Positions 13,679 to 64,000 of a stretch of DNA of 64,000 bases are shown here, piece after piece. The notes under the pieces were generated by a model, which searched no databases, was not told the origin of the DNA, and saw only the letters and a list, made by a program, of their open reading frames with translations. Origin of the DNA: Gammaproteobacteria bacterium (lineage in GTDB: Bacteria > Pseudomonadota > Gammaproteobacteria > JABABF01). Position numbers and translations under genes: made by a program. Within the stretch, counting starts at the first letter, position 1, and each line of letters starts with the position of its first letter. The DNA lies in NCBI GenBank assembly GCA_965205525.1, contig OZ242171.1, positions 1,869,098-1,933,097 of the forward strand. The letters are read 5' to 3'.

Positions 13679-14311
13679 TCAGCCAGCCCAGCGGCATACC
13701 ACAAGGTGGCGCTCAGCATCCACCCCCGGCACCTGCAGCGGCAGGCAGTACTCTACGACAATTTCCGGCGGCAGCTCCCCCAGCTCTCTCTCGGGGTTGC
13801 GACCCCTGGGAAACAGCAGGCAAGTTCCGGCCCGACAAAGATGTGAGAACATCTGCAGCAGCAGGGCTGGCGGCTTTACCGCTCGGGCTGTAATAATATC
13901 CGGCAGCTGCGCCGGGTGATATCGCTCCACCTCTGCCTCCGCCACCTCCGCTCCCTCTATCTCCAGTTCCGCCTTTGCCTGGCGCAGAAATCGGGCCTGA
14001 TTTGCCCCCCGGTCCAGCAGCACAACCCGCCGCTCCGGGCAGGCGATGGCAATCGGCAGACCAGGCAGACCGGCACCGCTTCCCACATCCAGCAGGATTT
14101 CTCCCGCAGGCAAGTGGTGCACCAAGCTTAGGCTGTCCAGCAGCAGTTTTCGCACCATCTCTTCAGGTTCCCGGACCCCAGTAAGGGAGAAACGCCTGTT
14201 CCAGCGCTCCAAAAGCTGCACATAGGCCAGCAATCTTTCCAAGGCGGTCTCCGGCAGGTGAAGGTCCATTTCCTGCAAGCCTGCTTTCAGGATCTCAGCG
14301 GGGTTGTCCAC
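13679..14311 (-). CDS. rsmG: 16S rRNA (guanine527-N7)-methyltransferase RsmG (GidB)
   Basis: LLDVGSGAGLPGLPIAI SAM-binding motif and GidB-like length, located directly downstream of mnmG. Confidence 0.85.
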   Translation of the reverse strand: MDNPAEILKAGLQEMDLHLPETALERLLAYVQLLERWNRRFSLTGVREPEEMVRKLLLDSLSLVHHLPAGEILLDVGSGAGLPGLPIAIACPERRVVLLDRGANQARFLRQAKAELEIEGAEVAEAEVERYHPAQLPDIITARAVKPPALLLQMFSHLCRAGTCLLFPRGRNPERELGELPPEIVVEYCLPLQVPGVDAERHLVVCRWAG

Positions 14312-14458
14312 GGGGTTCCGACTCTTGCCCGGTTCTCAGCAGGAAAGCCGAGCAGCAGTCCCGGCGGCTCTTCCCAGTACCCGCTGCTGCTTGCCCAGCA
14401 GAGCACGCGTGGGTTGTAGGGAGCTTTCCTGCCGGCAATGGATGTTCCGAGGCCCAGG

Positions 14459-45900: not shown

Positions 45901-48900
45901 GATTTCGGCTGTCGCCAAGACCGGGTGAGAACTTCGTGGAAATTTTCTCTTCAGGCTTTCCCATGCTGACGGTATCGCAGCGGCTTCTGACGCTGACACC
46001 GACCCAAGAGGGCGCCCAAGTGCAGGTTCACTTAGCGGCTATAGGAGGAGCGCCGGCGACGCCGGTGACAGCGATGGTGGTGGCAGAGGGTGGCGCAACG
46101 AGCAGGACACTGGAAATCACTCTTGGGCCAGATGCTGCTGAGAGTGTCTCTGCATTCCCGCCAGGCGTTCTGCCGCCAGGTGTCTATGATTTTTCAGTGG
46201 TTTCTTTATTGCCGCCCGACATCGCAATGATTGATAATGAAACAGGCACAACTACGCTGACAGTGGTATCGGGACTGAGTTTCATGCTGCCGACGGGCTC
46301 AACGCTGCCGGCGGGAAGCACAGTGATGGTTACGGTAATACGCAACAGCTTGGGAAGTGCGCTTCTGGATATTGATGCATATACTGGGGATGGAGACATT
46401 GAAGACAGCACGATAGTGTCAGCCAACGAAGTCGTTTCTTTTCCTGAGGATATGCTTACTGGGATGGCGGTATTTTCTGCGGGGAGTTTGCTTCCCAACA
46501 TATGGAGATTTAGGAGTAGTAATGATCTGAATATTGGGAGCAATGATAGGGTCACTGCATTGACCATAGAAGATCGGGTCCAGGTAACCCTGACCCCCGA
46601 TGCATCTGCGGTGTCGGCAGGGGGGGCGGTCCGCCTGGTTGCGACCGCGGTGCCTTCGCTGGCTGAAAGCCTCGGCAGGGTGCTCATTACGGTTACGGCG
46701 ACCGGAAGCAGTGGCCTCGCCTCTGGGCAATCAGAGGAGCAGATGGTCACTCTGTCATCGGAGCTGAATGCTGAACCAGTGATATTCCCGCGCCTGGCTT
46801 CGGGCGTCTGGATGATTAACGGGACGGACGCAAGAAACGCTGTGACCATTCCTGAAACAGAAGTCACCGTAGTGCTGTCAGCGGTAATTTTTGAGTCGAC
46901 AGCGTCACTGACCGATATAGATGGCGCCATGCGGCGGGCGGTGGCAGTGGGCAGCGATGTGCGCCTTGGACTGACGGCAGACCCTGCACCGGGCACGTCG
47001 GTGACGGTCACGGTGAGTGCTGTAGATGGCGATACGGGGGAGACGACAACGACAGAGGTCATGCTCTCGTCGAGCGCACCTGCGGCTGAAGCGCTATTCA
47101 GCGGGGCGAATGCCCTGGGTGTGGGCACATGGGGGTTTACCGCTGTGGCGAACCCGACTGATACAGTGGTATTTCAAGCAGCACCGATGGTGGTTGTGCT
47201 GGTGCCGACAATAATTCTCACATCGGACAGCGATGGAGAGACTGTGCGCGTAACCCAGCCGGTGCGCTTGACGGTAGCCTCAATGCCGTTTGCGCCAGGC
47301 ATGCCTGTAGAGATCAGTGTCCTTGCATCTCTTGGAGATAGAGAAAGCACGCAAATGGTCACCCTGTCGCCAGAAATGAGCTCGGCGTCGGTCGAATTTA
47401 CGCCGGACGTGCTGGGCCGGGTGGTGGGTGATTGGACCTTTACAGCAACAGCAGAGCCGGAGGGATTGGCAGATGTATCCGGGGCGGCGGTGACCGTGCC
47501 GGTAGGGCTGCCTGCAGTGCTTCTGACGCCGGTGGGAACAAGCTTAGACACAGGCAGCAGCGTGGTGCTGACAGTGAGCACAGATGCTCCGATAGAGGGC
47601 GAAGTCAGCATCACGGTGACAGGTATGTCAGAGGCAGGTCCGTTGCCACCCATGGCGGTTGTGCTGAGCCCGGGTGATACTGAAGAGACGGTAGATTTTG
47701 GTGTACTGCCCGAAGGCGAATACACCTTTACGGCAACATCCACGCCGACAGGCACTGTAGAGACCGTTTTTTCGACAGTGACGGTGATCATCGCCCCGGG
47801 CGGGAACCTATTGGACAGCCTTTCTCTGACACCGAGACAAATCGTGCAGGGCACTGTCGCCATCCTGAGGGTGGAGAAGGTCAGGTCGGCAGACAGTGCG
47901 CAGACTGTGACCGTTCTAAGAGATGGGGTGCCAGAGGGGGATCTGGTTATTCCTGCTGATTCACCCTCTGCCGAGGCAATGGTGCGGGGAGACGGTATCG
48001 GCGCATACACCTACTCTTTGGGAGACCCGAACAGCGAGCTGGCCAACGAAGAAGAGGAGCGTTTCCGACAGCCGCTGCGCGTGGTGGCCGATGTGCAGCT
48101 TAGCTTCGGGTTAAGTTTTGGCTATGTTGGTCAGTCTGTGGGCATCCGTGCAGCCTTGGTGGATGCAGACGGAAGCGCCGAAAGCCTGGACACGAGCGTG
48201 ACGCTGACCCTGCGGGCTGAGGAAGAAACGAGCGGGATGGTTTTGGATGACATCTCGCTGACAATCCCTGCAACAACGATATCCGGCAGCGCCGTATTCC
48301 TGCCGTCCATAGCCACTACTTGGACAATAACCGTAAGCGAGATAAGTCCGCCGGATGCCCTGCTGGTGCCGGCGGTCAGTATTGCACCGGCAGCAATAGC
48401 TATCAGGGAGCCGCTGCAGCTGGTGCTTATGCCGACTATTTCTTCGGTGCTTATCGGCAGTCCGATTGAACTGATGATAACTGCTGGCAACGCAGCAGAT
48501 GTGGAGGTGACGGCACTGACGGTAAGAGCCGTGCGGGGAGAAAATGGGCGATCAGACAGCCTGAGTCTGCCCACAGAAAATGAGGTGACAGTACAGCTAG
48601 ACAGCCTGAGTCTGCCCACAAATGTGGTGTTCAGGGCGGGCGATTTGGGGATCGGTGAATGGCAGTTTGAATTAATTGCAGAGCCCGCCTTTGCAATATC
48701 AGTTTCAGCGCCGGCGACAGTGACCCTGCTGGATGCAAACCTGGACCTCAGCTTGCCGGACGGGGACGGGGTAGGTGCGGATGATTTGATATTGCTATTG
48801 CGCTACCAGATATTGTGTGTCAGGCGGGTGCGGCCGGAATTTGACTGTGCAGACGGCCGGAATCTTACGCGCAACTTGAGCGCCGCCGACTATGATCTGC

Positions 48901-49091
48901 CGAGGCTGGTTGACCTGCGTGTGCCGGATGTGGCGAGCGACGGCATCGATCGAGTGAGGGCAGACATTTTTATATTGATGAGTTATCTGCAGGGGGTTGA
49001 AGGAGAGGAAATTTTCCCTCCCTTTGTGGCGCAAGAAGGTCGGGCGGGACTTCTGCGTGTCGTTCGGCACCTGCTGGACAGAGGGCAGTAA
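42903..49091 (+). CDS. giant secreted/cell-surface protein (2062 aa): signal peptide, 6 lactonase-type beta-propeller repeats, ~15 Ig-like ~100-aa repeats, dockerin/EF-hand-like C-terminus
   Basis: Signal peptide LLFSLSLAVVPVGAQEP. Six repeats of the form SPDGRLL.V.G..DNALSVW.V....GTLT. A long T/V/S/A-rich array of beta-sandwich-like repeats. The C-terminus has LPDGDGVGADDLILLLRYQIL and DVASDGIDRVRADIFILMSYLQG, resembling paired dockerin Ca-binding repeats. TTG start with GAGGAGG. Confidence 0.75.
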   Translation: MYLKIRLLLNTTARKPDAGNQRHGIRGYLAGILLFSLSLAVVPVGAQEPVPALSLEVTGLPAGSGAIPERLQLFLDCTEGEENDNCFQGLKGPSTAFGGIALSPDGRLLAVLGAGDNALSLWQVDTASDTISRSALYCSSVGSCPGGTDVEYGLEAPNDLTFSHDGELLMVANLESRSLSVWQVNAEAGTLTRSAVYWDSGTTGRGNCQDVFRDIDQCSARENSDGARIGLVENGGYLADGLNGAFDVAASPTHDLLFITGRSDRALSVWAIDAQAGTLTQIALYKGGSSGATACSGTGFSGANCEDELSGLQGVRGLTVSPDGRLVLVAGSGENALSVWRVNPEASGTAVLTQTDIYEDGANGIDGLGGVQDIAVSPNGRLAFATGTDENALSVWRVNAAAGTLTQTALYWDINAENCTDAEEAQGNCFDGLTSVRNLTLSPDGRLLFVTAVTDDSLSAFEVDDSSSTLRQTALSRIRSNVLVGLNTAADVIFGPLSAPDAAVGLGNPAGVVVSAAGTVFLKAGAGTAVGALSTWRVTPLVPTYSSVVLTVETDRVLSTPTTAAVKLISRRDMRELLLPVTLSSASVEATIPAGMLTPGLWDITVQTEPGAADVTGAQGLLRVAPLSLRLQREQQGDQVNLRATTTEGPPIAAITVTVQVTDTDVSTAVTFTLTPENFQDVLVPFPAGALPSGRYSVSLTSSPTGTINTVSTRAALMVRDYTLSLEAPAETLTANEFSVTVSAAPSLETTLRVTVTLRNDGVALQTRLAILTAATPSQAVAFTAPDASSPITVMLDTETMAEDESVTVVEASIANVLILPLPAVRLVFSENTARIGMDVSVNGVRIMVDSMPLTAAIVTVKATLRNSRQTSITASVEVGPDNFENLRAMFSVVGVPAGLWDLSASSSPPNALDTTGFTGTLRLNALPFLVLPEDNMPAGRSLKVSLRTVLLVTEEFRLSAIRQGSSPEVRIEADTPITFTNTDAGTATFAAGLDSGVWRFRLSPRPGENFVEIFSSGFPMLTVSQRLLTLTPTQEGAQVQVHLAAIGGAPATPVTAMVVAEGGATSRTLEITLGPDAAESVSAFPPGVLPPGVYDFSVVSLLPPDIAMIDNETGTTTLTVVSGLSFMLPTGSTLPAGSTVMVTVIRNSLGSALLDIDAYTGDGDIEDSTIVSANEVVSFPEDMLTGMAVFSAGSLLPNIWRFRSSNDLNIGSNDRVTALTIEDRVQVTLTPDASAVSAGGAVRLVATAVPSLAESLGRVLITVTATGSSGLASGQSEEQMVTLSSELNAEPVIFPRLASGVWMINGTDARNAVTIPETEVTVVLSAVIFESTASLTDIDGAMRRAVAVGSDVRLGLTADPAPGTSVTVTVSAVDGDTGETTTTEVMLSSSAPAAEALFSGANALGVGTWGFTAVANPTDTVVFQAAPMVVVLVPTIILTSDSDGETVRVTQPVRLTVASMPFAPGMPVEISVLASLGDRESTQMVTLSPEMSSASVEFTPDVLGRVVGDWTFTATAEPEGLADVSGAAVTVPVGLPAVLLTPVGTSLDTGSSVVLTVSTDAPIEGEVSITVTGMSEAGPLPPMAVVLSPGDTEETVDFGVLPEGEYTFTATSTPTGTVETVFSTVTVIIAPGGNLLDSLSLTPRQIVQGTVAILRVEKVRSADSAQTVTVLRDGVPEGDLVIPADSPSAEAMVRGDGIGAYTYSLGDPNSELANEEEERFRQPLRVVADVQLSFGLSFGYVGQSVGIRAALVDADGSAESLDTSVTLTLRAEEETSGMVLDDISLTIPATTISGSAVFLPSIATTWTITVSEISPPDALLVPAVSIAPAAIAIREPLQLVLMPTISSVLIGSPIELMITAGNAADVEVTALTVRAVRGENGRSDSLSLPTENEVTVQLDSLSLPTNVVFRAGDLGIGEWQFELIAEPAFAISVSAPATVTLLDANLDLSLPDGDGVGADDLILLLRYQILCVRRVRPEFDCADGRNLTRNLSAADYDLPRLVDLRVPDVASDGIDRVRADIFILMSYLQGVEGEEIFPPFVAQEGRAGLLRVVRHLLDRGQ

Positions 49092-49102
49092 CCCCTGTCC
49101 CC

Positions 49103-49963
49103 GTGAGCAGGCAAACCCCTGGGCTTCTTCTCGGCGGACTGCAATTCTGCGAATGCCCCCGCTGGCGCGACGGGCGCCTGTGGTTTTCTGACATGACCGC
49201 CGGGCGCATACTGGCGACGGACATGGCGGGGCATGCCGAGGAAATCGCCCGCTGGGAAGGCAGACCCGCCGGTCTCGGCTGGCTGCCGGACGGACGGCTT
49301 CTGGCGGTATCCATGCTGGACTGCCGGCTGATGTGCCTGGACAAAGAGAACTGGCGCGAGCTCGCTGACCTCAGTTCCTGGTGCGGCGGTCACGCCAATG
49401 ATATGGTGGTGGACAGCGAGGGACGCGCCTATGTGGGCAATATCGGCTTTGACCTTGAAGCCGAACCCTTTGAGCCCCGGCCCACAGTGCTCCTGTGTAT
49501 TGCGCCGGATGGACAGGTGCAGGTGGCGGCGGAGGAGCTCATTGCTCCCAATGGCATGGCCCTCTCTCCCTCCGGGAAGCAGCTGATACTGGCTGAATCC
49601 GGAGCGTATCGCCTGCTGTCCTACGACATTGCCGCCGATGGCAGTCTCAGCAATCGGCGGGTCTTCGCCGAACTGCCGGAGGGTGCTGCCCCGGATGGCA
49701 TCTGCCTGGATGCGGAAGGAGCGGTATGGGCCGCCAGTCCCACCTCGGGGGAGTTCCTGCGCCTGGCGGAAGGGGGCGATGTGCTGCAGCGTATTTCCTG
49801 CCCCGGCCGTGCACCGGTGGCGGTTGCTCTGGGCGGTGAGCAGGGACGCACTCTGTTCTGCCTCAGTGCTCCCCGCATGAGCATGAGGGAATCCGCCATG
49901 CTCAGCGATGCGCGCATTGAAACCGTGCAGGTAGAATCTCCAGGAGCAGGCCTTCCTTGCTAG
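49103..49963 (+). CDS. SMP-30/gluconolactonase/LRE-like (SGL) family protein
   Basis: CECPRWRDGRLWFSDM...LPDGRLL...DSEGRAYVGN...PNGMALSPSGKQLILAES...PDGICLDAEGAVW is the typical SGL six-blade propeller pattern. Starts 12 bp after the giant protein stop. Confidence 0.7.
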   Translation: MSRQTPGLLLGGLQFCECPRWRDGRLWFSDMTAGRILATDMAGHAEEIARWEGRPAGLGWLPDGRLLAVSMLDCRLMCLDKENWRELADLSSWCGGHANDMVVDSEGRAYVGNIGFDLEAEPFEPRPTVLLCIAPDGQVQVAAEELIAPNGMALSPSGKQLILAESGAYRLLSYDIAADGSLSNRRVFAELPEGAAPDGICLDAEGAVWAASPTSGEFLRLAEGGDVLQRISCPGRAPVAVALGGEQGRTLFCLSAPRMSMRESAMLSDARIETVQVESPGAGLPC

Positions 49964-50087
49964 AGCGAAAGCGGCAGCGCCTGGGGGGAGCAGCCCATGG
50001 GCAGACGCTCGGGCATGTCCTGCCCCTGAGCAGGCAGCCCGCATCTGTGTATAATTCCGTTTCCAGCTGGCGAGAGCAGTCTTTCCG

Positions 50088-50483
50088 GTGAACAGCGGAC
50101 GACGGATTCCGAGTATTCCCGGCAGGCAGGCCGCCTTCCGCATCCTCTTCGGTCTCGGTGCGGCGGCTCTTCTGGCATCAGCCTTTCTGGCATCGGTGGA
50201 TTTTGCTGCTGCCCGATCGGTATTTGCGGGATGCATGCTTTGTGTGCTGCCGAGTCTGTGGGCCGCCTTTGTCGCCTTTCGTCCGGCGCGGGCATCTGAG
50301 CCGGGGCGAATCGTGGGGCACATGTTCCGCGCCCAGTTCGGCAAATGGCTGCTCACTGCGGCGCTGATGCTCTTGGCTATCGCTGGAATACAGTCTGGCA
50401 GCTTGACCGCAGGTATTTTTTTTGCGGCCTATGGTGTGGCACTGGCGACCTACCTGGCACTCAGTGCACGGTGGAGCCTTTGA
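50088..50483 (+). CDS. atpI: ATP synthase protein I
   Basis: Small hydrophobic protein (131 aa, 3-4 TM) immediately upstream of atpB; start uncertain. Confidence 0.55.
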   Translation: MNSGRRIPSIPGRQAAFRILFGLGAAALLASAFLASVDFAAARSVFAGCMLCVLPSLWAAFVAFRPARASEPGRIVGHMFRAQFGKWLLTAALMLLAIAGIQSGSLTAGIFFAAYGVALATYLALSARWSL

Positions 50484-50491
50484 ACCGATAA

Positions 50492-51658
<1,167 letters not shown>

Positions 51659-51691
51659 AGCGAGAGCGGAGCGCCCGCAGGGGGGCTGACC

Positions 51692-52162
51692 ATGAACATC
51701 AACATGACGATGCTCGGGCAGGCGCTGGCCTTTGCCTTCTTCGTCTGGTTCTGTATGCGCTACGTATGGCCGCCGATTATCGCGGCCCTGCGGGAGCGTC
51801 AGGCCACGATTGCAGAGGGTTTAGATGCAGCGGAGCGCGGACAGCGCAGCCTGGAAGATGCTGGGCAGAAGGTGCAGGAATTGACCCAGGAGGCCAAGCG
51901 GCAGGCCGCAGCTATTCTGGAGCAGGCCAATCGCCGGGCGGATCAGGTGGTAGAGGAGGCCAAAGAGCAGGCCCGGACCGAGGGCGAGCGTCTGAAAGCC
52001 GCCGCCCGGGCCGAAGTGGAGCAGGAGGCGAGCCGCGCCCGGGAAAGCTTGCGCCGGGAAGTCGGGGCCTTGGCCCTCGCCGGTGCAGAGAAGGTGCTGG
52101 GCCGGGTGGTGGACCGCAATGCCCACCAGGATCTAGTGGCAGAGCTCGCTAAAGAGCTCTGA
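51692..52162 (+). CDS. atpF: F0F1 ATP synthase subunit b
   Basis: N-terminal TM segment followed by a long charged coiled coil; position in the operon. Confidence 0.85.
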
Positions 52163-52167
52163 GCGAT

Positions 52168-52704
52168 ATGGCGGAGCTGAGCACCCTGGCGCGCCCCTAC
52201 GCAAAGGCGGCTTTCGCCTTTGCCCGGGAGCACCGTGCGCTGCCCGCCTGGAGTGCCATGCTGGCAATGGCGGCGACGGTGGCAGAGGAGCCCCAAGTGG
52301 CGCAAAAGATAAATACTCCGAGCCTCAGCGCGACAGACCGGGCGACGCTGCTGATTGAGCTGTGCGGGGATGCGCTGGACCAGGCCGGTCGCAATTTTCT
52401 GCACATTCTCGCCGAGAATCTTCGCCTGCCGCTCTTGGGAGAGGTCGCCCGTCTTTTTGAAGAGCTGAAGGCGGCGGCAGAAAAAGAGGCGGCAGTGGAA
52501 ATTATCTCGGCGATGCCCTTGGAGGAAGAGATGACTGCACGCCTCACTCAGGCCCTGGGCGCACGGCTCGGGCAAGAGGTGAGCGTTCGTGTTCGGATAG
52601 ATGAGAATCTGCTCGGCGGTGCGGTGGTGCGTGCCGGGGACATGGTGATTGACGGTTCTGTGCAGGGTCGCTTGCAGCGTCTTGCAGAAGCGATAAAAAG
52701 CTGA
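52168..52704 (+). CDS. atpH: F0F1 ATP synthase subunit delta
   Basis: LARPYAKAAFAFA N-terminus (OSCP family); position in the operon. Confidence 0.85.
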   Translation: MAELSTLARPYAKAAFAFAREHRALPAWSAMLAMAATVAEEPQVAQKINTPSLSATDRATLLIELCGDALDQAGRNFLHILAENLRLPLLGEVARLFEELKAAAEKEAAVEIISAMPLEEEMTARLTQALGARLGQEVSVRVRIDENLLGGAVVRAGDMVIDGSVQGRLQRLAEAIKS

Positions 52705-52731
52705 AGCAATTAATTTTCGGGAGAGCAGTGC

Positions 52732-54276
52732 ATGCAGCAGTTAAATCCATCTGAGATCAGCGACATTATTCGTCAGCGAATAGATCAGCTGGAGGTGCGG
52801 GCGGAAGCGCGCACCGAGGGTGTGCTGGTCAGTGTGCAGGACGGCATTGTCCGCATTCATGGCCTGCGCGATGTCATGTACGGCGAAATGATTGAATTTG
52901 AGGGCGGCAGTTACGGAATGGCCCTCAACTTGGAAAGAGATTCGGTGGGCGCCGTGGTGCTGGGGGACTACCTCGGCCTGAAAGAGGGGCAGAGCTGCCG
53001 CTGCACCGGCCGCATTCTGGAAGTGCCGGTGGGCCCGGCGCTGCTGGGCCGGGTGGTAGATGCCCTCGGAAATCCGGTGGACGGCAGGGGACCCCTCGCC
53101 GACTGCGAGACCTCCCCCCTGGAGAAAGTCGCCCCCGGCGTTATCAGCCGCCAGTCGGTGAGCCAGCCGGTGCAGACCGGCCTGAAGGCCATTGACTCCA
53201 TGGTGCCGGTGGGCCGGGGCCAGCGGGAGCTCATCATCGGCGACCGCCAGGTGGGCAAGACGGCGGTGGCGATTGACACCATCATCAACCAGCAGGGCGG
53301 TGACCTGAAATGCATTTATGTGGCAGTGGGGCAGAAGCAATCTTCAATTGTCGGCGTGGTGCGCAAGCTGGAGGAGCACGGCGCAATGGAGCACACTATC
53401 GTGGTGGCGGCCGGGGCGGCCGACCCCGCTTCAATGCAGTTTCTCGCGCCCTTCGCCGGCTGCAGCATGGGCGAGTACTATCGCGACCGGGGCGAGGATG
53501 CCCTCATCATCTACGACGATTTAACCAAGCAGGCGTGGGCCTATCGGCAGATCTCCCTGCTGCTGCGCCGCCCGCCCGGCCGGGAGGCCTATCCCGGAGA
53601 TGTGTTCTACCTGCACTCGCGCCTGTTGGAACGGGCTGCCCGGGTGAATGCAGAGCACGTGGAAAAAATTACGGATGGCGCGGTCAAGGGCCGTACCGGC
53701 TCCCTGACGGCGCTGCCCATCATTGAAACTCAGGCTGGCGATGTCTCCGCCTTTGTGCCTACCAATGTGATCTCCATCACCGATGGACAGATCTTTTTGG
53801 AAACCGATTTATTCAACGCCGGCATCCGTCCTGCCATGAATTCGGGGCTGTCCGTTTCCAGGGTGGGCGGCGCTGCCCAGACCAGCATCATCAAGAAGCT
53901 GGGGGGCGGCATCCGTCTTGCCATGGCCCAGTACCGGGAGCTGGAAGCGTTTGCACAGTTTGCCTCGGACTTGGATGAGACCACCCGGGCGCAGCTGGAG
54001 CATGGCCAGCGGGTGACGGAGCTGATGAAACAGAGGCAGTACTCGCCGCTGTCGGTGGCGGAGATGGCGATCGGCCTGTTTGCTGCCAACGAGGGCTACC
54101 TGAAGGAGGTGCCGGTAAAGAAAGTGGGGGACTACGAGGCCGCACTCCTTTCCTACATGAACAGCGAGTACACCAAGCTGATGGCAGAGGTCAACAAGAC
54201 CGGCAAGTACGACGACGACATCACAAAAGCCTTTCGGGAAGCGCTGGACCAGTTTCAGGCGACACAGGGATGGTAG
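52732..54276 (+). CDS. atpA: F0F1 ATP synthase subunit alpha
   Basis: [18 protein letters not shown] Walker A; 514 aa. Confidence 0.95.
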
Positions 54277-54326
54277 CCATGGCGATATTCCCGACATCCC
54301 CCCGCGGCTGACAGGGAGAGCGCAGC

Positions 54327-55190
54327 ATGGCCGCCGGCAAAGAGATCCGCACCAAGATCGCGAGCATTTCCAGCACGCAGAAAATTACCAGCGCGATGGA
54401 AATGGTCGCGGCGAGCAAAATGCGCCGTGCTCAGGAGCGCATGGCCCGGGGCAAGCCCTATTCCGGCCACATCCGCAGCGTTATCGGTCATATCGCCTGT
54501 GCAACACCGGAGCACCAGCATTTCTACATGGACGAGCGCGAGCCGAAGCGGGTGGGGCTTATCGTGGTCTCTACTGACAGGGGGCTGTGCGGCGGCTTGA
54601 ATATTTCCCTGTTCAAGGCAGTGGTCGGACACATGCGCCAGTGGAATGAGCAGGGCATTGAGGTGGAGCTGTGTCTCATCGGCGCTAAGGCTGGCGCCTT
54701 TTTCAAAAGTGTCGGCGGGAAAGCGGTCTCCCAGGTGCGCGGTCTTGGTGAGAAGCCGTCGGTGGAGGATCTGATAGGCACTGTGAAGATAATGCTGGAC
54801 GGCTTTGAAGAGCAGCGCTTAGATCGTCTGTTCCTGGCCGGCAATGATTTTGTCAATACCATGACCCAGAGCCCGCAGGTCAAGCAGTTGCTGCCGCTGC
54901 CGGCGGACGAGACAGCGGACTACCAGCACCACTGGGACTACATCTATGAGCCGGACGAAGCGGGACCGCTGCTCTCCGGCCTCCTGGCACGCTACATAGA
55001 GGCCTTGGTGTACCAGGCGGTGGTGGAAAACGGCGCCTGCGAGCAGGCGGCGCGGATGGTGGCAATGAAAAGCGCTACGGAGAATGCGGGCGAGCTGATA
55101 GATGAGCTGCAGCTGGCCTACAACAAGAGTCGCCAGGCTGCCATCACGCAGGAGCTGTCAGAAATTGTCAGCGGTGCGGCGGCGGTATAG
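54327..55190 (+). CDS. atpG: F0F1 ATP synthase subunit gamma
   Basis: [36 protein letters not shown]. Confidence 0.9.
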
Positions 55191-55204
55191 ACTGGAGCGG
55201 TGCC

Positions 55205-55675
55205 ATGCGGAATTTGTTCAGCACCGGGCCATGCCGAGTCAGCAGAACTCCCCGCAACTTGGATTTCCAAATGATGCATGTTCAGAAAACCGGGCGGGAA
55301 GATGGCTTTCCCAAGCTGCTGGATGAATACCTGCCCCCGCCATCGCCAGATGCCGAGCCCCCGGTCCGCGAAGTCTTGGATCTTCACGGCTTTTATCTGG
55401 AGGAGGCCCTGGAGAAAGTGCGCAGCCATGTCATCGCGGCGGCCAGAAGCGGCATGGAGCAGGTGCGCATTGTCTATGGTCGGGGGCGGCACTCCCCGGA
55501 CGGCCAGCCAGTGCTTCGGGAAGAGGTGCAGAAGCTCCTGCAAAAGGAGCTGCGACCCTATGTACAGAGATTTAAATCTGCGCCGCGCAAACAGGGCGGA
55601 GAAGGCGTGGCCATCGTCTATCTCTCCCTCGGTGACAGTCGCCAGCGGCTGGCGGCACAGCGGCATGAATCATGA
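55205..55675 (+). CDS. Smr (small MutS-related) domain protein inserted between atpG and atpD
   Basis: LDLHGFYLEEALEKV...VRIVYGRGRHSPDGQPVLREEVQKLLQ...GGEGVAIVYL is an Smr domain. Translation may begin at an internal Met (MMHVQ...). Confidence 0.7.
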   Translation: MRNLFSTGPCRVSRTPRNLDFQMMHVQKTGREDGFPKLLDEYLPPPSPDAEPPVREVLDLHGFYLEEALEKVRSHVIAAARSGMEQVRIVYGRGRHSPDGQPVLREEVQKLLQKELRPYVQRFKSAPRKQGGEGVAIVYLSLGDSRQRLAAQRHES

Positions 55676-57091
<1,416 letters not shown>

Positions 57092-57121
57092 GCGCATGCC
57101 CGCAGAGTACCGAGCCCGGAC

Positions 57122-57550
57122 ATGAGCCAAGCCAGAGTGCGCTGTGAAATCGTCAGCGCAGAACAGCAGATTTTCTCCGGCGAGGTGGAGATGCTGCTGG
57201 TCACCGGCGCGCTGGGAGACCTCGGTATCGCACCCGGACATGCACCGCTCCTGACCGAGCTGAAACCCGGCCCGATAGAAATCCGCCAGGGCGAGGGCAA
57301 CACCCAGGTGTTTTATGTCTCCGGGGGCTACTTGGAAGTGCAGCCCAACTGCATCACCGTGCTAGCCGATACCGCGCTTCGGGCTGCGGACATAGATGAG
57401 GCGGCGGCAGAGGAGGCGCGCCAGGCGGCGGAGCGGGAGCTGGGCGACCGCAAGGGCGATATGGATTACACAAAAGCTGCCGCGCAACTGGCGGAGGCGG
57501 CGGCGCAGCTGCGGACTCTGCGACAGCTGAGGAATAAGCGCAGCGGATGA
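57122..57550 (+). CDS. atpC: F0F1 ATP synthase subunit epsilon
   Basis: Beta-sandwich N-terminus plus helical C-terminus typical of epsilon; follows atpD. Confidence 0.9.
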
Positions 57551-58590
57551 CCGCACAGCCTGAGTTCCGGGGCAGCGCCTTGGATTATTTCGGGATCTGG
57601 AGCACCAACCTATTTCTAGTAATTCTGACCTTGGGCTTGTACTCCCCCTGGGCCACCGTTCGCAAGCGCAAGTATCTGTACGGCAGCACCTGCCTGCTGA
57701 ACTCGCCGCTGGACTACCATGCCCGGCCGCTGGCAATATTGAATGGCCGCTTGGTGGCTATCCTGCTGCTAGTGCTGATCAGCTTGCTTTCCTTTTTCCC
57801 GATAGCGGAAATATTGTTTTTACCCCTATTCGTTCTAGCAACGCCTTTCTTGGTAGCGCTTGCCTACAGGTTCAGTCTTCGCAATACTTCTTGGCGACAG
57901 GTGCGATTTGATTTCCGGGGCAGCGGCAAAAGTGCTTTCGCTCCCTATTTTTTCTGGCCTTCCCTAGCCATTATGACGCTCGGGCTGCTGCTCCCCTATA
58001 TGCGCTTTCGCCAGCTGCAATACACCACCGACAACATGGAATTCTGCGGGCAGCGCTTTCGTTTCAGCGGCAGGGCCGCCACTCTCTACAAGTTTTATAT
58101 ATTGGCTCTTATCGCTTTTTTTCTGGTTATCTCTGCGTATTTTTTCTTCTTTGCAAACTTTAGAGGTTTCGGCTTTGGCCCGCAGTCACTCCCTACGATT
58201 GCGCAGTCTATTTTAGGATACTGGGGAGATATCCTTGCATTTTTTGCAATAGTTTTCGTCATTCCCACTGCCGTCTATGTGGCCGAACTGCGATACCGAT
58301 ATAACCACACCAGTTTTGGTCCGGACATCGCCCGCTTCAGCAGCGACATCAGCACCGGCGGAATGCTGTGGCTCTCTATGACCAACCTGCTGGCAATTAT
58401 TCTCACCTTGGGTCTGGCCATCCCGTGGGCCGCTATCCGGGTGCTCCGCTATCGTCTCGCCCACATTCAAGTGCACTGCGAGTCCGAAGAGCGCATTGAC
58501 GCGATGATAGGCGAAGCCAAAGGGGAGGCCAGCGCCATTGGCGAGGAGATAGTGGAGGGCTTGGATGTCGGCACGGGCATAGGGATATGA
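57547..58590 (+). CDS. DUF898 (YjgN-like) family inner-membrane protein
   Basis: F.G...[22 protein letters not shown] pattern repeated twice (internal duplication typical of DUF898). ATGA overlap with the atpC stop. Confidence 0.7.
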
Positions 58591-59675
58591 GCAAGACAGA
58601 GGGCCTTCTTTTTGATGGCCGCTCTGCGAAGGGACAGCCTGTTTCACTGGAATGGGACGGCAGCTGCCTGCACATTAATGGAGAACATGGCAGCAGCGTT
58701 TGCAGCCGTGAGTCCCTGCGCGTCAGTGCCGATATCGGCGGCATTTCCCGCTGGATCTACCTGCCCAGCGGCCTGAGCTGCGAGGTGCGGAATTCGGCCT
58801 TCGCCGATGCCCTCTCTCCGCCGCCCCTGCGCCACCGCATCTTGCGAACATTTGAATCCCGCATCGGTCTCAGTATGGTCGCCGCCGTTTTGGTGCTGGC
58901 TGCGGTGGCTTGGGTGATGGCCCGGGGAGTGCCACTGCTGGCAGAGGCTGTAGCTGAGCGCTTGCCGGAGGAGACCCGTGCCGCTGCCGGCGAAGTTGCC
59001 TTGCTGGCAATGAATCAGCTGACCCGCCCCACCAGCCTCGGCACTGCAGAGCAGGCCCGGCTTGCCGCGCTGTTCAGTCGGGTAAAGGAGATGGCCGACC
59101 GGCCCGATGCCACCCTGTACATGCGAGACGGCTGGAGTATCGGCGCAAATGCGATTGCCATACCAGGCGAGCGCCTGGTCATCACCGACCAGCTGGTGCA
59201 GCTTGCAGAAAACGAGGACGAGCTGCTCGGCGTGATGGCGCATGAATTCGGTCATTTTGAATATCAGCACAGCATAAGAATGCTTTTTCTTTCAACCGGC
59301 ATCACGATAATGATGGCGGTTCTGCTCGGCGATATCAGCGCACTCTTTGACCAGGCAGGAGGCTTGCCCGTCCTGCTGGTATACAACGGCTACTCCCGCG
59401 AATTTGAGCAGGAGGCAGACGCCTATGCAATCGCACTCATGCAGGAGGACGGCATAGAACCATGGCATCTGTCCGCACTCCTCAGCCGACTGACCTCTGC
59501 AGCAGAACCCGGCCTGGACTATTTCTCCAGCCACCCGGCCACCGACAAAAGAATAAGAGCAATAGGATGTCCGCCGCTTTCACCAGCGGCAGACTTGCCA
59601 GAAACCGACCTCCTCCGCACCGCATGCATGCCGCAGGACAAGGCTGAAGACCCTGCCGTATTAATACGAAACTAA
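58587..59675 (+). CDS. M48-family zinc metallopeptidase with N-terminal domain and one TM segment
   Basis: HEFGHFEYQH (HExxH) with a downstream EQEADAYA third ligand region. ATGA overlap with the DUF898 stop. Confidence 0.75.
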   Translation: MSKTEGLLFDGRSAKGQPVSLEWDGSCLHINGEHGSSVCSRESLRVSADIGGISRWIYLPSGLSCEVRNSAFADALSPPPLRHRILRTFESRIGLSMVAAVLVLAAVAWVMARGVPLLAEAVAERLPEETRAAAGEVALLAMNQLTRPTSLGTAEQARLAALFSRVKEMADRPDATLYMRDGWSIGANAIAIPGERLVITDQLVQLAENEDELLGVMAHEFGHFEYQHSIRMLFLSTGITIMMAVLLGDISALFDQAGGLPVLLVYNGYSREFEQEADAYAIALMQEDGIEPWHLSALLSRLTSAAEPGLDYFSSHPATDKRIRAIGCPPLSPAADLPETDLLRTACMPQDKAEDPAVLIRN

Positions 59676-59697
59676 CATATTCTGTTTTAGCCTAGTA

Positions 59698-59725
59698 GAC
59701 GAATTCGCCACCCGTCAAAATCGCC
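59698..59725 (+). repeat. 28-bp direct repeat copy 1 (gacGAATTCGCCACCCGTCAAAATCGCC), 120 bp upstream of the GIY-YIG gene
   Basis: Identical 25-mer recurs at 60823-60847. Confidence 0.7.
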
Positions 59726-59844
59726 CCAGACACGGGTCTCCCCCTCCGTGGAGCAGGTCGCTAAGAACTTATTATAATGAAAATCCATGTCATAATCGAT
59801 TATGGTAATTAGTCAGAGTTGCCTTAATTTAATAGGAAAAAATC

Positions 59845-60675
59845 ATGAGTTCAATCCCAATTACAGATATCCTTGATATTGACAAACCAAGTGCATACAA
59901 ACTTCATGCCGCTCGGTATAATCGAGTCGATGAACCACTTTCTGTGTATGTTAGAGACAAGGATGAGTGGGTTGGCTGGAATAAGTGGAGAGGGGAAAGG
60001 CATGATTTCAATCGGCGATATATATTTTCATTGATTGATTTTTATCATGAAGCAAACACGTGGTTATTTGGTGGAATATTCAAAGTGATGGAAGAAAAGA
60101 AAGGTGAAAATTATAAGATAAAAAAGCTTAGTCAATATTCTAATTATGTTGGTAGATTGAAAGTTAAATGGACTCCCCCCAGTAGAAACCGGGCCTTTAA
60201 ATTGGAGAAGTATTTGGAAGAAATGATAGTCTCTGAGATTCTGAAACTGCGATATTCAGGAGAAAGTTTTCCCGGGTACGAAAACATAAATCATCGCTTC
60301 AGCACCCTAGAACCTATATTCAAAAATGAAGTCGCTGGGTGGAAAGCCGCATTAGAGAACGTTAAAGGGGTTTATGTGGTTATGGATGACTCCAATGGAA
60401 AAAAATATGTTGGATCTGCATATGGAGAAGATGGCGTTTGGTCTCGCTGGGGTTGTTACATCGGAACAGGCGGGCATGCGTGGAATGATGAGCTTGAAAA
60501 ACTAATTAAGAAGAAAGGGCCCGACTACGCACATAATCATTTCACGCTATCATTGCTTGAGCATTACCCAATGAAGGTAGATGACAGCGTGATTATAGGC
60601 AAGGAGGGCAGGGAGAATTACTGGAAAAAAGTATTTCTCTCAAGCTCAAAAAAGTTTGGCTACAACAAAAACTAG
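59845..60675 (+). CDS. GIY-YIG nuclease-domain protein (N-terminal domain unknown), low-GC
   Basis: C-terminal GVYVVMDDSNGKKYVGSAYGEDGVWSRW...H matches the GIY-YIG catalytic motif. Gene GC is far below the genome average. Confidence 0.6.
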   Translation: MSSIPITDILDIDKPSAYKLHAARYNRVDEPLSVYVRDKDEWVGWNKWRGERHDFNRRYIFSLIDFYHEANTWLFGGIFKVMEEKKGENYKIKKLSQYSNYVGRLKVKWTPPSRNRAFKLEKYLEEMIVSEILKLRYSGESFPGYENINHRFSTLEPIFKNEVAGWKAALENVKGVYVVMDDSNGKKYVGSAYGEDGVWSRWGCYIGTGGHAWNDELEKLIKKKGPDYAHNHFTLSLLEHYPMKVDDSVIIGKEGRENYWKKVFLSSSKKFGYNKN

Positions 60676-60819
60676 AGATTTAGGGAATATCTGATTAATA
60701 CGCGAAAACTTTGTGGTCAATGCGAAACTCTCTTTTATTATTCAGATATGCGGCATTGGTGCCGATGAAACTGCGGCACTTTTCACCACTTCAGCAACAA
60801 ACACATGCTATGCTGTAAA

Positions 60820-60847
60820 GATGAATTCGCCACCCGTCAAAATCGCC
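60820..60847 (+). repeat. 28-bp direct repeat copy 2 (gatGAATTCGCCACCCGTCAAAATCGCC), 37 bp upstream of the methyltransferase gene
   Basis: Identical 25-mer to 59701-59725. Confidence 0.7.
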
Positions 60848-60883
60848 GTGGCAAGCTGGGTTGCAGCAACCTAATCGGAGAAC

Positions 60884-61648
60884 ATGCCAATGCCTAGACC
60901 AGTTGCCAAACGGATTGAACCGATCAATGCGTCATCCGATACGCTGACCGCCAGCGTGTTCTCAAGTGTTCGGACTGTCCAACTGCCGGCGATAGAAATA
61001 CCCGCCGGCTTGAAGCTGAACAAGCGTATGAAAATGGACGGCTTGAAATTCCTTTCCAAACTGCCGGACAGCGCCATACCGGTCGCGTTCTTTGACCCGC
61101 AATATCGGGGGATACTCGACAAAATGTCGTATGGTAACGAGGGTATCGGACGCAGCCAGCGCCGCTGCGCTTTGCAGCAAATGACCGAGCCGACTATCGC
61201 CGAGTTTATTCGTGAGATTGATCGGGCACTGATACCAAGCGGGCATCTATTCCTATGGATGGATAAATTCCATCTTTGCAACGGCTTCCGTGGATGGCTG
61301 GACGCAACCGACCTTGATATTGTCGATCTGGTGAATTGGGATAAAGGCAAAATCGGCATGGGATATAGAAGCCGCCGGACTACCGAATACTGCGTCGTGC
61401 TGCAAAAGAAACCCCGCAAGGCCAAAGGCGTATGGAAAGTACACAATATCCCGGACACCTGGCGAGAGAAAACAAACAACGGAAACGGGCACCCGCATAA
61501 AAAACCGTTGGACTTGCAAGGCGAGCTAATCGCCGCCGTGAGCAATGAAGGTGATATTGTGATCGACCCGGCGGCCGGTGGTTTTACAGTGCTAGAAGCG
61601 GCAAAGCTGCAGCGTCGTAACTTTCTAGGCTGCGACCTAAACGGGTAA
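60884..61648 (+). CDS. beta-class N6-adenine/N4-cytosine DNA methyltransferase
   Basis: Motif IV FFDPQY (DPPY variant) precedes motif I IVIDPAAGGFTVLEAAKLQRRNFLGCDL; conserved HPHKKPLDLQGELI. Confidence 0.75.
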   Translation: MPMPRPVAKRIEPINASSDTLTASVFSSVRTVQLPAIEIPAGLKLNKRMKMDGLKFLSKLPDSAIPVAFFDPQYRGILDKMSYGNEGIGRSQRRCALQQMTEPTIAEFIREIDRALIPSGHLFLWMDKFHLCNGFRGWLDATDLDIVDLVNWDKGKIGMGYRSRRTTEYCVVLQKKPRKAKGVWKVHNIPDTWREKTNNGNGHPHKKPLDLQGELIAAVSNEGDIVIDPAAGGFTVLEAAKLQRRNFLGCDLNG

Positions 61649-61719
61649 TAGTGCAGGAACGGAAGCAAGAGCAGCCGGCAAATGTCCAGTTTTTCCTGTT
61701 CCTTTCTTCCCGCACTAGT

Positions 61720-62832
61720 TTAATCAACAACTAAACTATAAGAAGGCAGCAAGTCGCGTAACACGTATGTGCGGTGAATTGCCGCAGCACGATAAAACTG
61801 CCAAACTGGAGATTTTATGGCTTTAAAATAGTTTTCTTGGTTGTTAAACGCTTCCCATTCTTCATTCCAAGATTCGCCATCGTAGTCAGGTATCTGCTCA
61901 CCACTTTCAGTGCCAAATATCTTTCCCGATTCAGCAGCATCTTTCCAGACTTGGATTCGTCCTTCCTTGTTGGCCTGTGTTGCTAAAATGTTTATTACAC
62001 TGTCTCTGATGCTAGAGAATGGACGTCCATCTCCAGAATTATACTGCCCATTGGCTTGGGAAAATTTCCCAAATACTCTGTGTAAAGCTTGGCATCCCTC
62101 AAGAAAAGTTTCAGGATTATTTCTCTCACTCAACCGATTTTCTGCTTCAGCATCATCTTCATCATATTTGAAACTCCATTTCAAAAAGGGGCGGTCCGGG
62201 AAGGTTGCGGCAGCACCATGCCCCAAAGCGCCAGAGGCTATTTCGGCAACTATGCCTCCCAACGTGCTTTTTATATTTTTTATAGAGAAAGCATTTTCCT
62301 TTTTTTTGAAAAACTCTTTTTCTTTAGCACGAACATAGTCCTTAATTTTTTGGTCAAGGCCTTCATCAATATAAATTGAGGAATGCTTAATCTTGTTTCC
62401 ACGGGAGCTAATACCAGAAAAACCGTAGTGCGAAAAGGTATCAGCGTAAACATGTGCGCCAATCCCTATCAACTCACGAGCGAATCCGCGGCCTGCAAAA
62501 CCAAGATGGTGCTCGATCATCTCTCTTGCTGGTTTGCTGTCTTTTCGGCATTTCATCCTATCTCTATAGCTTTCACCAATATTGCCTGGAATAAAATGGA
62601 AAGGCACCCATACCCTACGCTGATCGTGTGGATCCAGATTCGCTAGCGTCATAGGGTGATGAGCAGTAGCTTCACTATCTATTCTTGATCCGTCTTCAAA
62701 TTCAAGAGCTTCCTTTGCCACATTGTCGTCTACAAATTGAGCACAGGTCGCAATAATTATTGCGGCATCCTGACTAAGGCCAGCGGCTCTCGCCATCGAG
62801 TAAGTGCCATGGTAATGCATGTCTAATTGCAT
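61720..62832 (-). CDS. hypothetical His-rich protein (possible metal-dependent hydrolase/nuclease-like), low-GC
   Basis: 370 aa. MQLDMHYHGTYSMARAAG...HHPMTL...HHLGFAGRG...GAHVYADTFSHYGF form clusters of His/Asp suggestive of metal binding. No confident family assignment. Confidence 0.45.
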   Translation of the reverse strand: MQLDMHYHGTYSMARAAGLSQDAAIIIATCAQFVDDNVAKEALEFEDGSRIDSEATAHHPMTLANLDPHDQRRVWVPFHFIPGNIGESYRDRMKCRKDSKPAREMIEHHLGFAGRGFARELIGIGAHVYADTFSHYGFSGISSRGNKIKHSSIYIDEGLDQKIKDYVRAKEKEFFKKKENAFSIKNIKSTLGGIVAEIASGALGHGAAATFPDRPFLKWSFKYDEDDAEAENRLSERNNPETFLEGCQALHRVFGKFSQANGQYNSGDGRPFSSIRDSVINILATQANKEGRIQVWKDAAESGKIFGTESGEQIPDYDGESWNEEWEAFNNQENYFKAIKSPVWQFYRAAAIHRTYVLRDLLPSYSLVVD

Positions 62833-63124
62833 GACATTGCTCCTTTTTGTAAAATTCCAGTTTGCCTTATAAAACTAAGGCCACCATCAAATATATACCA
62901 TGCTCTATTCTTCATGTTCAGTCAACCCCACTAAATTATACGCCGCGCTGAATGCTGGCGCAGGCCGATGGAGATCGCTGGATAAGTGAGTTATAGGTTT
63001 CACGGCAAATAAACTGTATGAAATACGGATACCCGCCCGATATTGTGTATATCCTCTCCACCGATGCATCATCCAACTTCACCTTTTCGGTTAAAATCAC
63101 TCGGCTTTGTCACGCAGATCGGAT

Positions 63125-64000
63125 ATGCAAACAGAAGACGAATGGAGAAAAGCGCTTGACGTGCTGCGCGGGACTTTCGGGTTTTCGGAGTTCCGCCCCC
63201 ACCAGGGAGAGGTCATACGGACGCTGCTGGCCGGCAGGGATGCGATTGCGGTGATGCCCACCGGCGGCGGCAAGTCGCTTTGCTATCAGATTCCGTCGAT
63301 CGTGCGCCGGGGGACCGGGGTGGTGGTTTCGCCGCTGATTGCACTGATGAAAGACCAGGTCGATGCCCTGCGCCAATACGGGGTTCGTGCGGCGTTTTTG
63401 AATTCCAGCCTGTCGTATGGCGAGCGCCTCGATACCGAGCAGACTTTCCTGCGCGGCGGTTTTGATTTGATCTATATGGCGCCGGAGGGCCTGCTCAGCG
63501 AGCCGATGCTGCAGCTGCTGGAAAAGGTCGATATTGCGCTGTTTGCAGTTGACGAGGCGCACTGCGTATCGCGCTGGGGGCACGATTTTCGGCGGGAGTA
63601 TCTGGGGCTTTCGGTGCTGGCGGAGCTGTTTCCCGAGGTGCCGCGGGTGGCGCTCACCGCCACCGCCGACGAGATGACGCAGCGCGAGATCACCGAGCAG
63701 CTGCGGCTGCGCAGCGCGGACAGGCATATCGCCGGCTACGACCGCCCCAACATCCGCTACATGATCAGCGAATCGGCCAACGCCCGGCAGTCGCTGCTCA
63801 ATTTCATCACCGAAAACCATGCCGGCGACAGCGGCATTGTCTATTGCATGTCGCGCAACGGCGTCGAGAAAACCGCCGAGTGGCTGGCCGCAAAAGGATT
63901 TTCGGCAGTTGCCTATCACGCCGGCATGACGCCCTCGGAGCGCGAGCATAATCACAACCGCTTCTTGAACGAGGCCGGCATCATCGTCGTGGCGACGATC
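63125..64000 (+). CDS. recQ: ATP-dependent DNA helicase RecQ (N-terminal 292 aa; continues beyond window)
   Basis: MQTEDEWRKALDVLRGTFGFSEFRPHQGEVIRTLLAGRDAIAVMPTGGGKSLCYQIP...DEAHCVSRWGHDFR...LTATAD. Not in the ORF track because it runs off the edge. Confidence 0.9.
   Translation, partial: MQTEDEWRKALDVLRGTFGFSEFRPHQGEVIRTLLAGRDAIAVMPTGGGKSLCYQIPSIVRRGTGVVVSPLIALMKDQVDALRQYGVRAAFLNSSLSYGERLDTEQTFLRGGFDLIYMAPEGLLSEPMLQLLEKVDIALFAVDEAHCVSRWGHDFRREYLGLSVLAELFPEVPRVALTATADEMTQREITEQLRLRSADRHIAGYDRPNIRYMISESANARQSLLNFITENHAGDSGIVYCMSRNGVEKTAEWLAAKGFSAVAYHAGMTPSEREHNHNRFLNEAGIIVVATI

Follow-up and report, generated by a model that had tools for sequence, protein, structure and literature searches.

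A DUF898–M48 metallopeptidase gene pair overlapping atpC: a probable self-contained membrane-protease module behind an ATP synthase operon

Are genes that are tied to a housekeeping operon by overlapping stop and start codons also tied to it in function? This question is raised by a locus in a stretch of 64,000 nucleotides (nt) of contig OZ242171.1 (assembly GCA_965205525.1, Gammaproteobacteria bacterium), in the following called the window. Here the atpC gene of a complete F1Fo ATP synthase operon on the + strand runs directly into a gene for a DUF898 (YjgN) family membrane protein, and this gene in turn into one for an M48 zinc metallopeptidase with an N-terminal DUF7092 domain. A preliminary description had understood the two genes as an extension of the ATP synthase operon, co-transcribed and coupled with the F1Fo genes. 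The data presented here suggest that they are probably a self-contained membrane-protease module, which was captured behind atpC in one lineage, is unrelated to ATP synthase and rides on atp transcription.

Three overlapping genes and their conservation

The identities of the three genes given in the preliminary description and both ATGA overlaps are correct, as seen from Pfam and from the sequence itself (Table 1). In the atpC product both ATP-synt_DE_N and ATP-synt_DE are matched. The gene ends with ...GCGGATGA, its stop codon TGA occupying 57548–57550 and the ATG of the DUF898 gene 57547–57549 (57543–57552 reads ...GCGGATGACC). The DUF898 gene ends with ...GGGATATGA, with TGA at 58588–58590 and the ATG of the protease gene at 58587–58589 (58582–58592 reads ...GGGATATGAGC). 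Position 57547 is the earliest start in the DUF898 frame and lies six codons ahead of the residues F7 and G9, which are invariant in the family alignment; position 58587 is the sole in-frame start ahead of the conserved N-terminus of the protease. Both start codons are secure, and an artefact of open reading frame (ORF) extension is ruled out. Overlaps of 4 nt are the commonest type in bacteria. In the window, for which the count rests on crude gene calls, they occur in 3 of 23 same-strand neighbour pairs, and two of these three are the junctions in question; two consecutive 4-nt overlaps are therefore not the local norm.

The clade of the window was sampled with six further contigs (L084, L085, L086, L087, L001 and L003). 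The AtpC of the window is 85–100% identical to those of these relatives; beyond the clade it is closest to the proteins of Zooshikella, Neptuniibacter and Endozoicomonas, at only 63–69% identity. The DUF898–M48 pair was found downstream of atpC in all six contigs. L084 is a strain with 98.9% identity across the block from atpD to the M48 gene and has the same two overlaps as the window. In L085, L086 and L087 atpC is followed by a 9-nt spacer, the DUF898 gene and, with a 4-nt overlap, the M48 gene; L001 belongs to the same spacer type and carries in addition a tandem duplication of the DUF898 region. In L003 the order is atpC, an ORF of 208 amino acids (aa), a 138-nt spacer, DUF898 and, once more after a 4-nt overlap, M48. 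Thus, the DUF898/M48 overlap of 4 nt is kept in every relative: within the clade this junction is invariant, in contrast to the one between atpC and DUF898. The window and L087 are homologous at the nucleotide level from atpI to position 59693, which is 18 nt beyond the M48 stop codon.

Two of these arrangements have features of their own. The duplication in L001 (8727–11002) takes in the 3' end of atpC, DUF898 and ~22 codons from the beginning of M48; identity of its two DUF898 copies to the protein of the window is 65% and 72%. It is either real or an artefact of long-read assembly, and only one copy is present in L085, a sister contig obtained from the same sample. The additional ORF of L003 (9236–9862), the most divergent member of the clade, begins with a lipoprotein-type signal sequence (MGRALFVFSLLVLAAGC...) and has no Pfam match.

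The pair in other species and the origin of its link to atp genes

Each GTDB species was represented by one genome in a scan driven by an alignment, which yielded at least 585 loci; of these, the 80 closest to the query were kept. These span Gamma-, Beta- and Alphaproteobacteria, Acidobacteria, Thermodesulfovibrio, Opitutales, Sulfurospirillum, Geomonas and Desulfobacteraceae. In 80 of 80 a DUF7092-M48 gene lies immediately 3' of the DUF898 gene on the same strand (tblastn with the window proteins), which confirms that the pair is recurrent. The two genes overlap in 53 species (by 4 nt in 31, by 1 nt in 12 and by 11 nt in 8), are separated by 0–10 nt in 20 and by more in 6, so that the junction measures 10 nt or less in 73 of the 80. 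The window with its 4-nt overlap has the junction typical of the module, an adjacent M48 gene that overlaps or follows within about 10 nt. Within 10 kb of the pair, atpA, atpG, atpD or atpC was found in none of the 80 loci; a third recurrent neighbour family was likewise lacking among them in an all-against-all clustering of ORFs. Constant pairing together with the lack of atp genes nearby leads to the conclusion that the pair is a self-contained module.

Other searches were less productive. A scan of GTDB genomes with a single protein found no close relative, and the exact sequence of the window's DUF898 protein matched no contig on record. With the 90-residue DUF7092 domain against 1.84 billion representatives, phmmer returned 15 matches, which is too insensitive for a census but brought to light the variants fused to TPR repeats. 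Functional literature on DUF898, yjgN, DUF7092, PF05987 or PF23368 was not found, in agreement with the earlier statement that the pair is functionally unassigned. One paper uses the label "DUF898" for the membrane domain of the urate oxidase PuuD; this is suspected to be a misprint for a different DUF number and was set aside, as the window protein matches PF05987 only. PA0276 and PA0277 of Pseudomonas aeruginosa may be such a pair, which is a lead and not evidence. Published work describes PA0277 as a Zn-dependent protease that is repressed by RsmA and responds to ppGpp.

The extension of the ATP synthase operon turned out to be a local fact of the window's clade, throughout which the pair stands near atp genes; outside the clade, the outgroups and the 80 other species all lack this arrangement. 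On the nearest outgroup contigs, L089 and L090 (AtpC 66% identical), atpBEFHAGDC is followed by FAD_binding_2 on the − strand, glmU and glmS, and neither the DUF898–M48 pair nor the Smr gene described below is present at the operon. In the outgroup contig L088, yjdM on the − strand follows atpC, and Zooshikella ganghwensis has the canonical order atpC-glmU-glmS. Endozoicomonas numazuensis carries atpC on JOKH01000005 and the pair on JOKH01000001. In the other clade species small unrelated genes follow the pair, and then an FAD-oxidoreductase gene on the − strand, glmU and glmS. As the outgroups have no pair after atpC, it is a clade-specific insertion between atpC and glmU. Its GC content at third codon positions (GC3) of 0.65–0.66 is near that of the atp genes (0.68–0.78), the neighbouring uzuA having 0.40, and the pair is therefore regarded as long resident and not as a recent import. 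An unrelated observation in the outgroup L090 is a DarT and Macro (DarTG-like) pair just after glmS (13689–14770), which is absent from the otherwise collinear L089.

Regarding expression, no sigma-70-like site was detected by a consensus scan between 55712 and 57550, that is in atpD and atpC. Terminator-like matches were no more frequent than expected (11 observed, 12.4 from shuffling). One hairpin in the first DUF898 codons (Table 1) has a folding energy of −18.3 kcal/mol (z −2.4 in the window) and a poor U-tract, and the structure is different or absent in L087 and L003. It was rejected as an operon boundary, being weak and not conserved, and is at most a leaky attenuator. Sites of the GGAG type lie a few nt upstream of the starts of atpE, atpA, atpG and the Smr ORF. 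At the two genes of the pair the Shine-Dalgarno-like sites are badly spaced, with 13 nt from the end of GAGGA to the start codon of DUF898 and 1 nt from the end of AGGGA to that of M48, which fits reinitiation after the upstream stop. With no spacer, no promoter site and a poor Shine-Dalgarno sequence, the most economical reading of the sequence is that the pair is co-transcribed with the atp genes and that ribosomes reinitiate after atpC. Scans for Rfam families (49000–64000) and for tRNAs (whole window) gave no matches.

Predicted architecture of the two proteins

The DUF898 protein matches PF05987 with 302.6 bits (cut-off 28) over profile positions 5–335 of 336. Its AlphaFold2 model, based on an alignment of 63 sequences, has a pLDDT of 92 and a pTM of 0.86. 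According to the model, the alignment and BLASTP against YjgN, the protein contains three homologous units, each consisting of a beta-hairpin and a short helix-turn-helix, and the helical part of each unit carries the invariant motif N..L..LTLG.Y.PWA.VR..RY. The units alternate with long hairpins that are predicted to span the membrane. A C-terminal helix (residues 314–339) is followed by a tail modelled with low confidence or as disordered from residue 338 onwards. A solved structural counterpart for this three-repeat membrane fold was not found. Nearly all arginines and lysines are located on the side of the beta-strands, and the loops on the other side are very short and carry no charge; by the positive-inside rule, the beta platform is therefore placed in the cytoplasm, together with the tail and the N- and C-termini. 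N-terminal zinc-ribbon or GYF fusions, which Pfam detects on some homologues, fit a cytoplasmic N-terminus. The short helical hairpins may be re-entrant, and their insertion into the membrane, like the topology as a whole, is a prediction.

The tail itself is acidic and conserved. A motif [SA]A.G.E...D..D.D.G[ILF] stands at the extreme C-terminus of all 80 M48-paired homologues as well as of the window protein, and variants with long acidic loop insertions keep the same tail. The namesake of the family, YjgN of Escherichia coli, is encoded by a solitary gene that is flanked by yjgM and valS and has no M48 gene beside it, and the protein has no acidic C-terminal tail. It belongs to the same Pfam family, and its repeat 1 can be aligned with each of the three repeats in the window protein; identity between the two is only 28%, over the N-terminal 147 residues.

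The protease exceeds the Pfam cut-offs for DUF7092 (PF23368, 53.7 bits versus 24.5) and M48 (PF01435, 96.5 bits versus 20.3) and was modelled with a pLDDT of 81.6. In the protease alignment H219, E220, H223, E274, E276 and D278 are invariant. It has the HExxH motif, the downstream glutamate ligand and the fold of M48 enzymes, and is thus a member of this family with predicted catalytic activity. Its best solved matches by both profile and fold are BepA (YfgC) and the soluble Geobacter M48 peptidase 3c37, which share with it HExxH and the downstream zinc/catalytic motif E..EAD. A profile search of the PDB gave E-values of 1.4e-29 for 3c37 and 1e-18 for BepA, and Foldseek matched the C-terminal part to 3c37, ZMPSTE24 and BepA. 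However, the protein is far below the NCBIfam equivalog cut-offs for HtpX, BepA and LoiP (34.4 bits versus 570 for BepA, 15–20 bits versus 275–422 for HtpX). Unlike BepA, it has neither a signal peptide nor TPR repeats, and it possesses a PH-like domain, a membrane anchor and a DUF898 partner gene; some members of the DUF7092-M48 family do bear C-terminal TPR or Sel1 repeats, as in BepA. With HtpX it has in common the M48 motif, membrane anchoring and plausibly a quality-control type of role. It differs from HtpX in the single predicted transmembrane helix ahead of the catalytic domain and in an active site that would be periplasmic and not cytoplasmic.

For the N-terminal part, Foldseek returned PH or talin-F3 domains (3rcp, 3voq, 5c79) with E-values of 7e-3 to 9e-2 and a target-normalised TM-score of about 0.5 for stand-alone PH domains. 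The segment RHRILRTFESR lies on the N-terminal side of the helix at residues 93–125. The protein is probably oriented N-in and C-out, which would put the PH-like domain on the cytoplasmic side of the membrane and the M48 domain on the periplasmic side. PH/PTB-type domains bind cytoplasmic tails of membrane proteins, as talin F3 does with integrin beta tails; the DUF7092 model matches this fold, and DUF898 ends in a strictly conserved short tail which is predicted to be on the DUF7092 side of the membrane. The likeness to talin F3 is an analogy alone, without sequence relationship. A C-terminal extension of the protease contains two conserved cysteines (..IGCPP...C..); it is restricted to the clade and absent from 11 more distant aligned homologues.

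Explanations for the locus and its surroundings

Taken together, these results can be accommodated in the following model. A module of DUF898 and DUF7092-M48, translationally coupled and present in many Proteobacteria and some other phyla, would have been inserted between atpC and the FAD-oxidoreductase/glmU/glmS genes in one marine, Oceanospirillales-like lineage with a small genome (~2 Mb) and then inherited. The spacer would later have been lost in the window's species, which placed the DUF898 start on the stop codon of atpC. Expression would depend on read-through transcription from the atp genes and on ribosomes reinitiating after atpC, a positional hitch-hiking on a constitutive operon without any role in ATP synthase. 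DUF898 would be a polytopic inner-membrane protein with its basic beta platform and acidic tail in the cytoplasm, and the protease would cross the membrane once, exposing its PH-like domain to the cytoplasm and its BepA-like M48 domain to the periplasm. The platform or the tail of DUF898 may serve as docking site for the PH-like domain, and the resulting 1:1 complex would anchor or regulate an envelope protease facing the periplasm. Obligate pairing and coupling throughout the family argue for such a stoichiometric complex, and the BepA-like domain as well as the variants bearing TPR repeats suggest periplasmic or envelope substrates. A bolder version may be entertained tentatively: the pair would be a two-subunit complex for envelope proteolysis or signalling, of a class so far overlooked. 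DUF898, with three pseudo-symmetric re-entrant hairpins standing on a cytoplasmic beta platform and a fold that no solved structure shows, would control the periplasm-facing protease through a cytoplasmic PH-like domain gripping the tail, and in this lineage with its reduced genome the wiring to atp would set the dosage according to growth or energy state.

Several points weigh against a self-contained module riding on atp transcription. The 80 loci were those nearest to the query out of at least 585 and are no random sample of DUF898 proteins, and for the correlation between tail and partner E. coli YjgN is the one solo counter-example. The predicted topology stands on the positive-inside rule and on the secondary structure in the AlphaFold models, and the contact between PH-like domain and tail is a candidate interface. 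A non-consensus internal promoter may exist in atpC or atpD. Finally, the pair stands beside atpC in every clade contig examined, with DUF898 identity falling to 54%, and this position may be under selection.

One rival explanation is that the pair is tied to ATP synthase within the clade, for instance by clearing unassembled or damaged Fo subunits or processing an assembly factor, with DUF898 as adaptor and the coupling to atpC setting the stoichiometry. Besides the place behind atpC in every clade member found, the overlap of atpC stop and DUF898 start in the window and L084 speaks for this idea. In E. coli, moreover, quality control of membrane proteins by proteases, including the M48-family HtpX together with FtsH, is established. 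However, the enzyme is BepA- and 3c37-like and not HtpX-like by the equivalog scores given above, and its catalytic domain is predicted to face the periplasm. The atpC/DUF898 junction varies even within the clade, as seen from the ORF and 138-nt spacer of L003 and the duplication of L001, E. numazuensis possesses atp genes and pair unlinked, and no atp gene accompanies the pair in the 80 other species. Adjacency is thus confined to one narrow clade and lacking in its outgroups; a functional tie to F1Fo, as far as the preliminary description implied one, was not supported and appears quite improbable. It is unlikely, too, that the overlaps reflect mere genome compaction, with the pair driven by its own promoter in atpD or atpC and regulated apart from atp. 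A small genome (~2.0 Mb) would agree with compaction, and the weak hairpin behind the DUF898 start could lower read-through. In L003 the 138-nt spacer holds a perfect TATAAT ~40 nt before the DUF898 start and in addition AGGAG, which makes an independent promoter plausible in this relative. In the window, however, no sigma-70-like site was seen over the two genes in question, and the hairpin lacks a good U-tract and is not conserved. Since there is no intergenic space, nothing stops atp transcripts from entering DUF898.

A further explanation starts from the other side of the locus, where the M48 gene of the window's species is followed by a low-GC island of variable or defence genes. Over the window and L084 it holds UzuA, a DNA methyltransferase, DUF6765, a RecQ-like helicase, a ThsB-like TIR protein, Nmad2 and MazG_C, and the pair could be part of it as phage defence or mobile-element cargo. 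This is hardly credible: neither the DUF898 protein nor the protease matched a PADLOC model at E ≤ 0.01, the pair was found in 0 of 50,697 phage records and in only 7 of 72,556 plasmid records, most of which are megaplasmids or as large as a chromosome, and no recurrent defence neighbour exists among the 80 loci. Moreover, every clade species has kept the pair, in spite of a completely different island downstream, and its GC3 is host-like, unlike that of UzuA and DUF6765.

For the biology of ATP synthase the locus is accordingly of little consequence, the evidence favouring a positional accident over a new accessory factor, and overlap with a housekeeping operon alone is no proof of shared function. 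Both families were already contained in Pfam, and the locus is a further example of a pair that is widespread. Of note are how strictly the two genes are paired, the motif in the DUF898 tail, the resemblance of DUF7092 to PH domains and the lack of a solved relative of DUF898. The pair emerges as an obligate, apparently translationally coupled module in at least several hundred species, for which a testable model with a 1:1 complex, a candidate interface and a predicted topology can now be offered. Tractable hosts with the pair include Sinorhizobium meliloti, Acinetobacter baumannii, Lysobacter and Methylotuvimicrobium.

Table 1 Features of the locus and its surroundings in window coordinates; residues refer to the respective protein
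Feature	Position	Residues	Strand	Basis or remark
atpB	50501–51364		+	length and collinearity with Pfam-labelled genes of L087
atpE	51425–51658		+	length and collinearity with Pfam-labelled genes of L087
atpF	51692–52162		+	length and collinearity with Pfam-labelled genes of L087
atpH	52168–52704		+	length and collinearity with Pfam-labelled genes of L087
atpA	52732–54276		+	Pfam
atpG	54327–55190		+	Pfam
Smr-domain ORF, 156 aa	55205–55675		+	NCBIfam
atpD	55712–57091		+	Pfam
atpC (F1 epsilon subunit, 142 aa)	57122–57550		+	PF02823 E 9e-30, PF00401 E 1.5e-9
ATGA overlap, atpC stop/DUF898 start	57547–57550		+	read in sequence
DUF898/YjgN-family polytopic membrane protein, 347 aa	57547–58590		+	PF05987 E 4.5e-90
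Weak stem-loop followed by UUAUUUCGGG, in first DUF898 codons	57566–57584		+	terminator-like match
DUF898 short helix pairs		11–27/33–46, 127–143/149–162, 270–286/292–305		AlphaFold2 model
DUF898 predicted long transmembrane hairpins		61–81/85–112, 177–206/215–253		AlphaFold2 model
Acidic conserved C-terminal DUF898 tail	58528–58587		+	proposed docking peptide for partner
ATGA overlap, DUF898 stop/M48 start	58587–58590		+	read in sequence
DUF7092-M48 zinc metallopeptidase, 362 aa	58587–59675		+	PF23368 E 3e-14, PF01435 E 2e-27
PH-like domain, six strands and helix	58587–58814	1–76	+	AlphaFold2, Foldseek
Predicted transmembrane helix	58863–58961	~93–125	+	AlphaFold2 model
HEFGH zinc motif	59241–59255	219–223	+	protease alignment
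Clade-specific C-terminal extension	59577–59675	~331–362	+	alignment
Low-GC insertion of 1,072 nt with UzuA, strain-specific	59695–60766		+	absent from L084
UzuA ORF (Uzume defence)	59845–60675		+	PADLOC E 5e-45
N6/N4 DNA methyltransferase	60884–61648
DUF6765, GC3 0.37	61720–62832		−

Conservation ends just downstream of the protease gene. The UzuA insertion right after the M48 stop codon is a presence/absence polymorphism at the strain level, L084 being 96–99% identical in the flanking blocks; it lies outside the module and marks the end of conservation. The island itself extends over 60884–64000 in the window and over 3649–13486 in L084, where it also holds a GIY-YIG protein, an M78 peptidase and UDG in addition to the RecQ-like helicase, the ThsB-like TIR protein, Nmad2 and MazG_C. 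Wholly different genes occupy its position in the other species of the clade.

Upstream, all eight structural genes stand in the order of the canonical gammaproteobacterial arrangement atpIBEFHAGDC-glmUS, with gaps of 5–60 nt between the genes inside the operon. The canonical glmU and glmS are still downstream in the clade relatives, Zooshikella representing the plain form. Unlike the canonical order, the clade has DUF898–M48 and several small genes, or the defence island, between atpC and glmU, and a Smr gene between atpG and atpD. An insertion inside atpIBEFHAGDC, as with this Smr ORF, is unusual. The ORF has a GGAG site of its own and matches the C-terminal region of MutS2, SmrA and SmrB in NCBIfam (E 5e-13 to 3e-5). 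All relatives in the clade have the gene (PF01713 in L001, L003, L085 and L087), and the atp operons of the outgroups (L088, L089/L090, Zooshikella and Endozoicomonas) lack it. Directly upstream of the operon lies a giant ORF of 2,062 aa on the + strand (42903–49091), whose counterparts in the relatives comprise 1,842–1,853 aa and show Pfam matches to lactonase or WD40-like beta-propellers.

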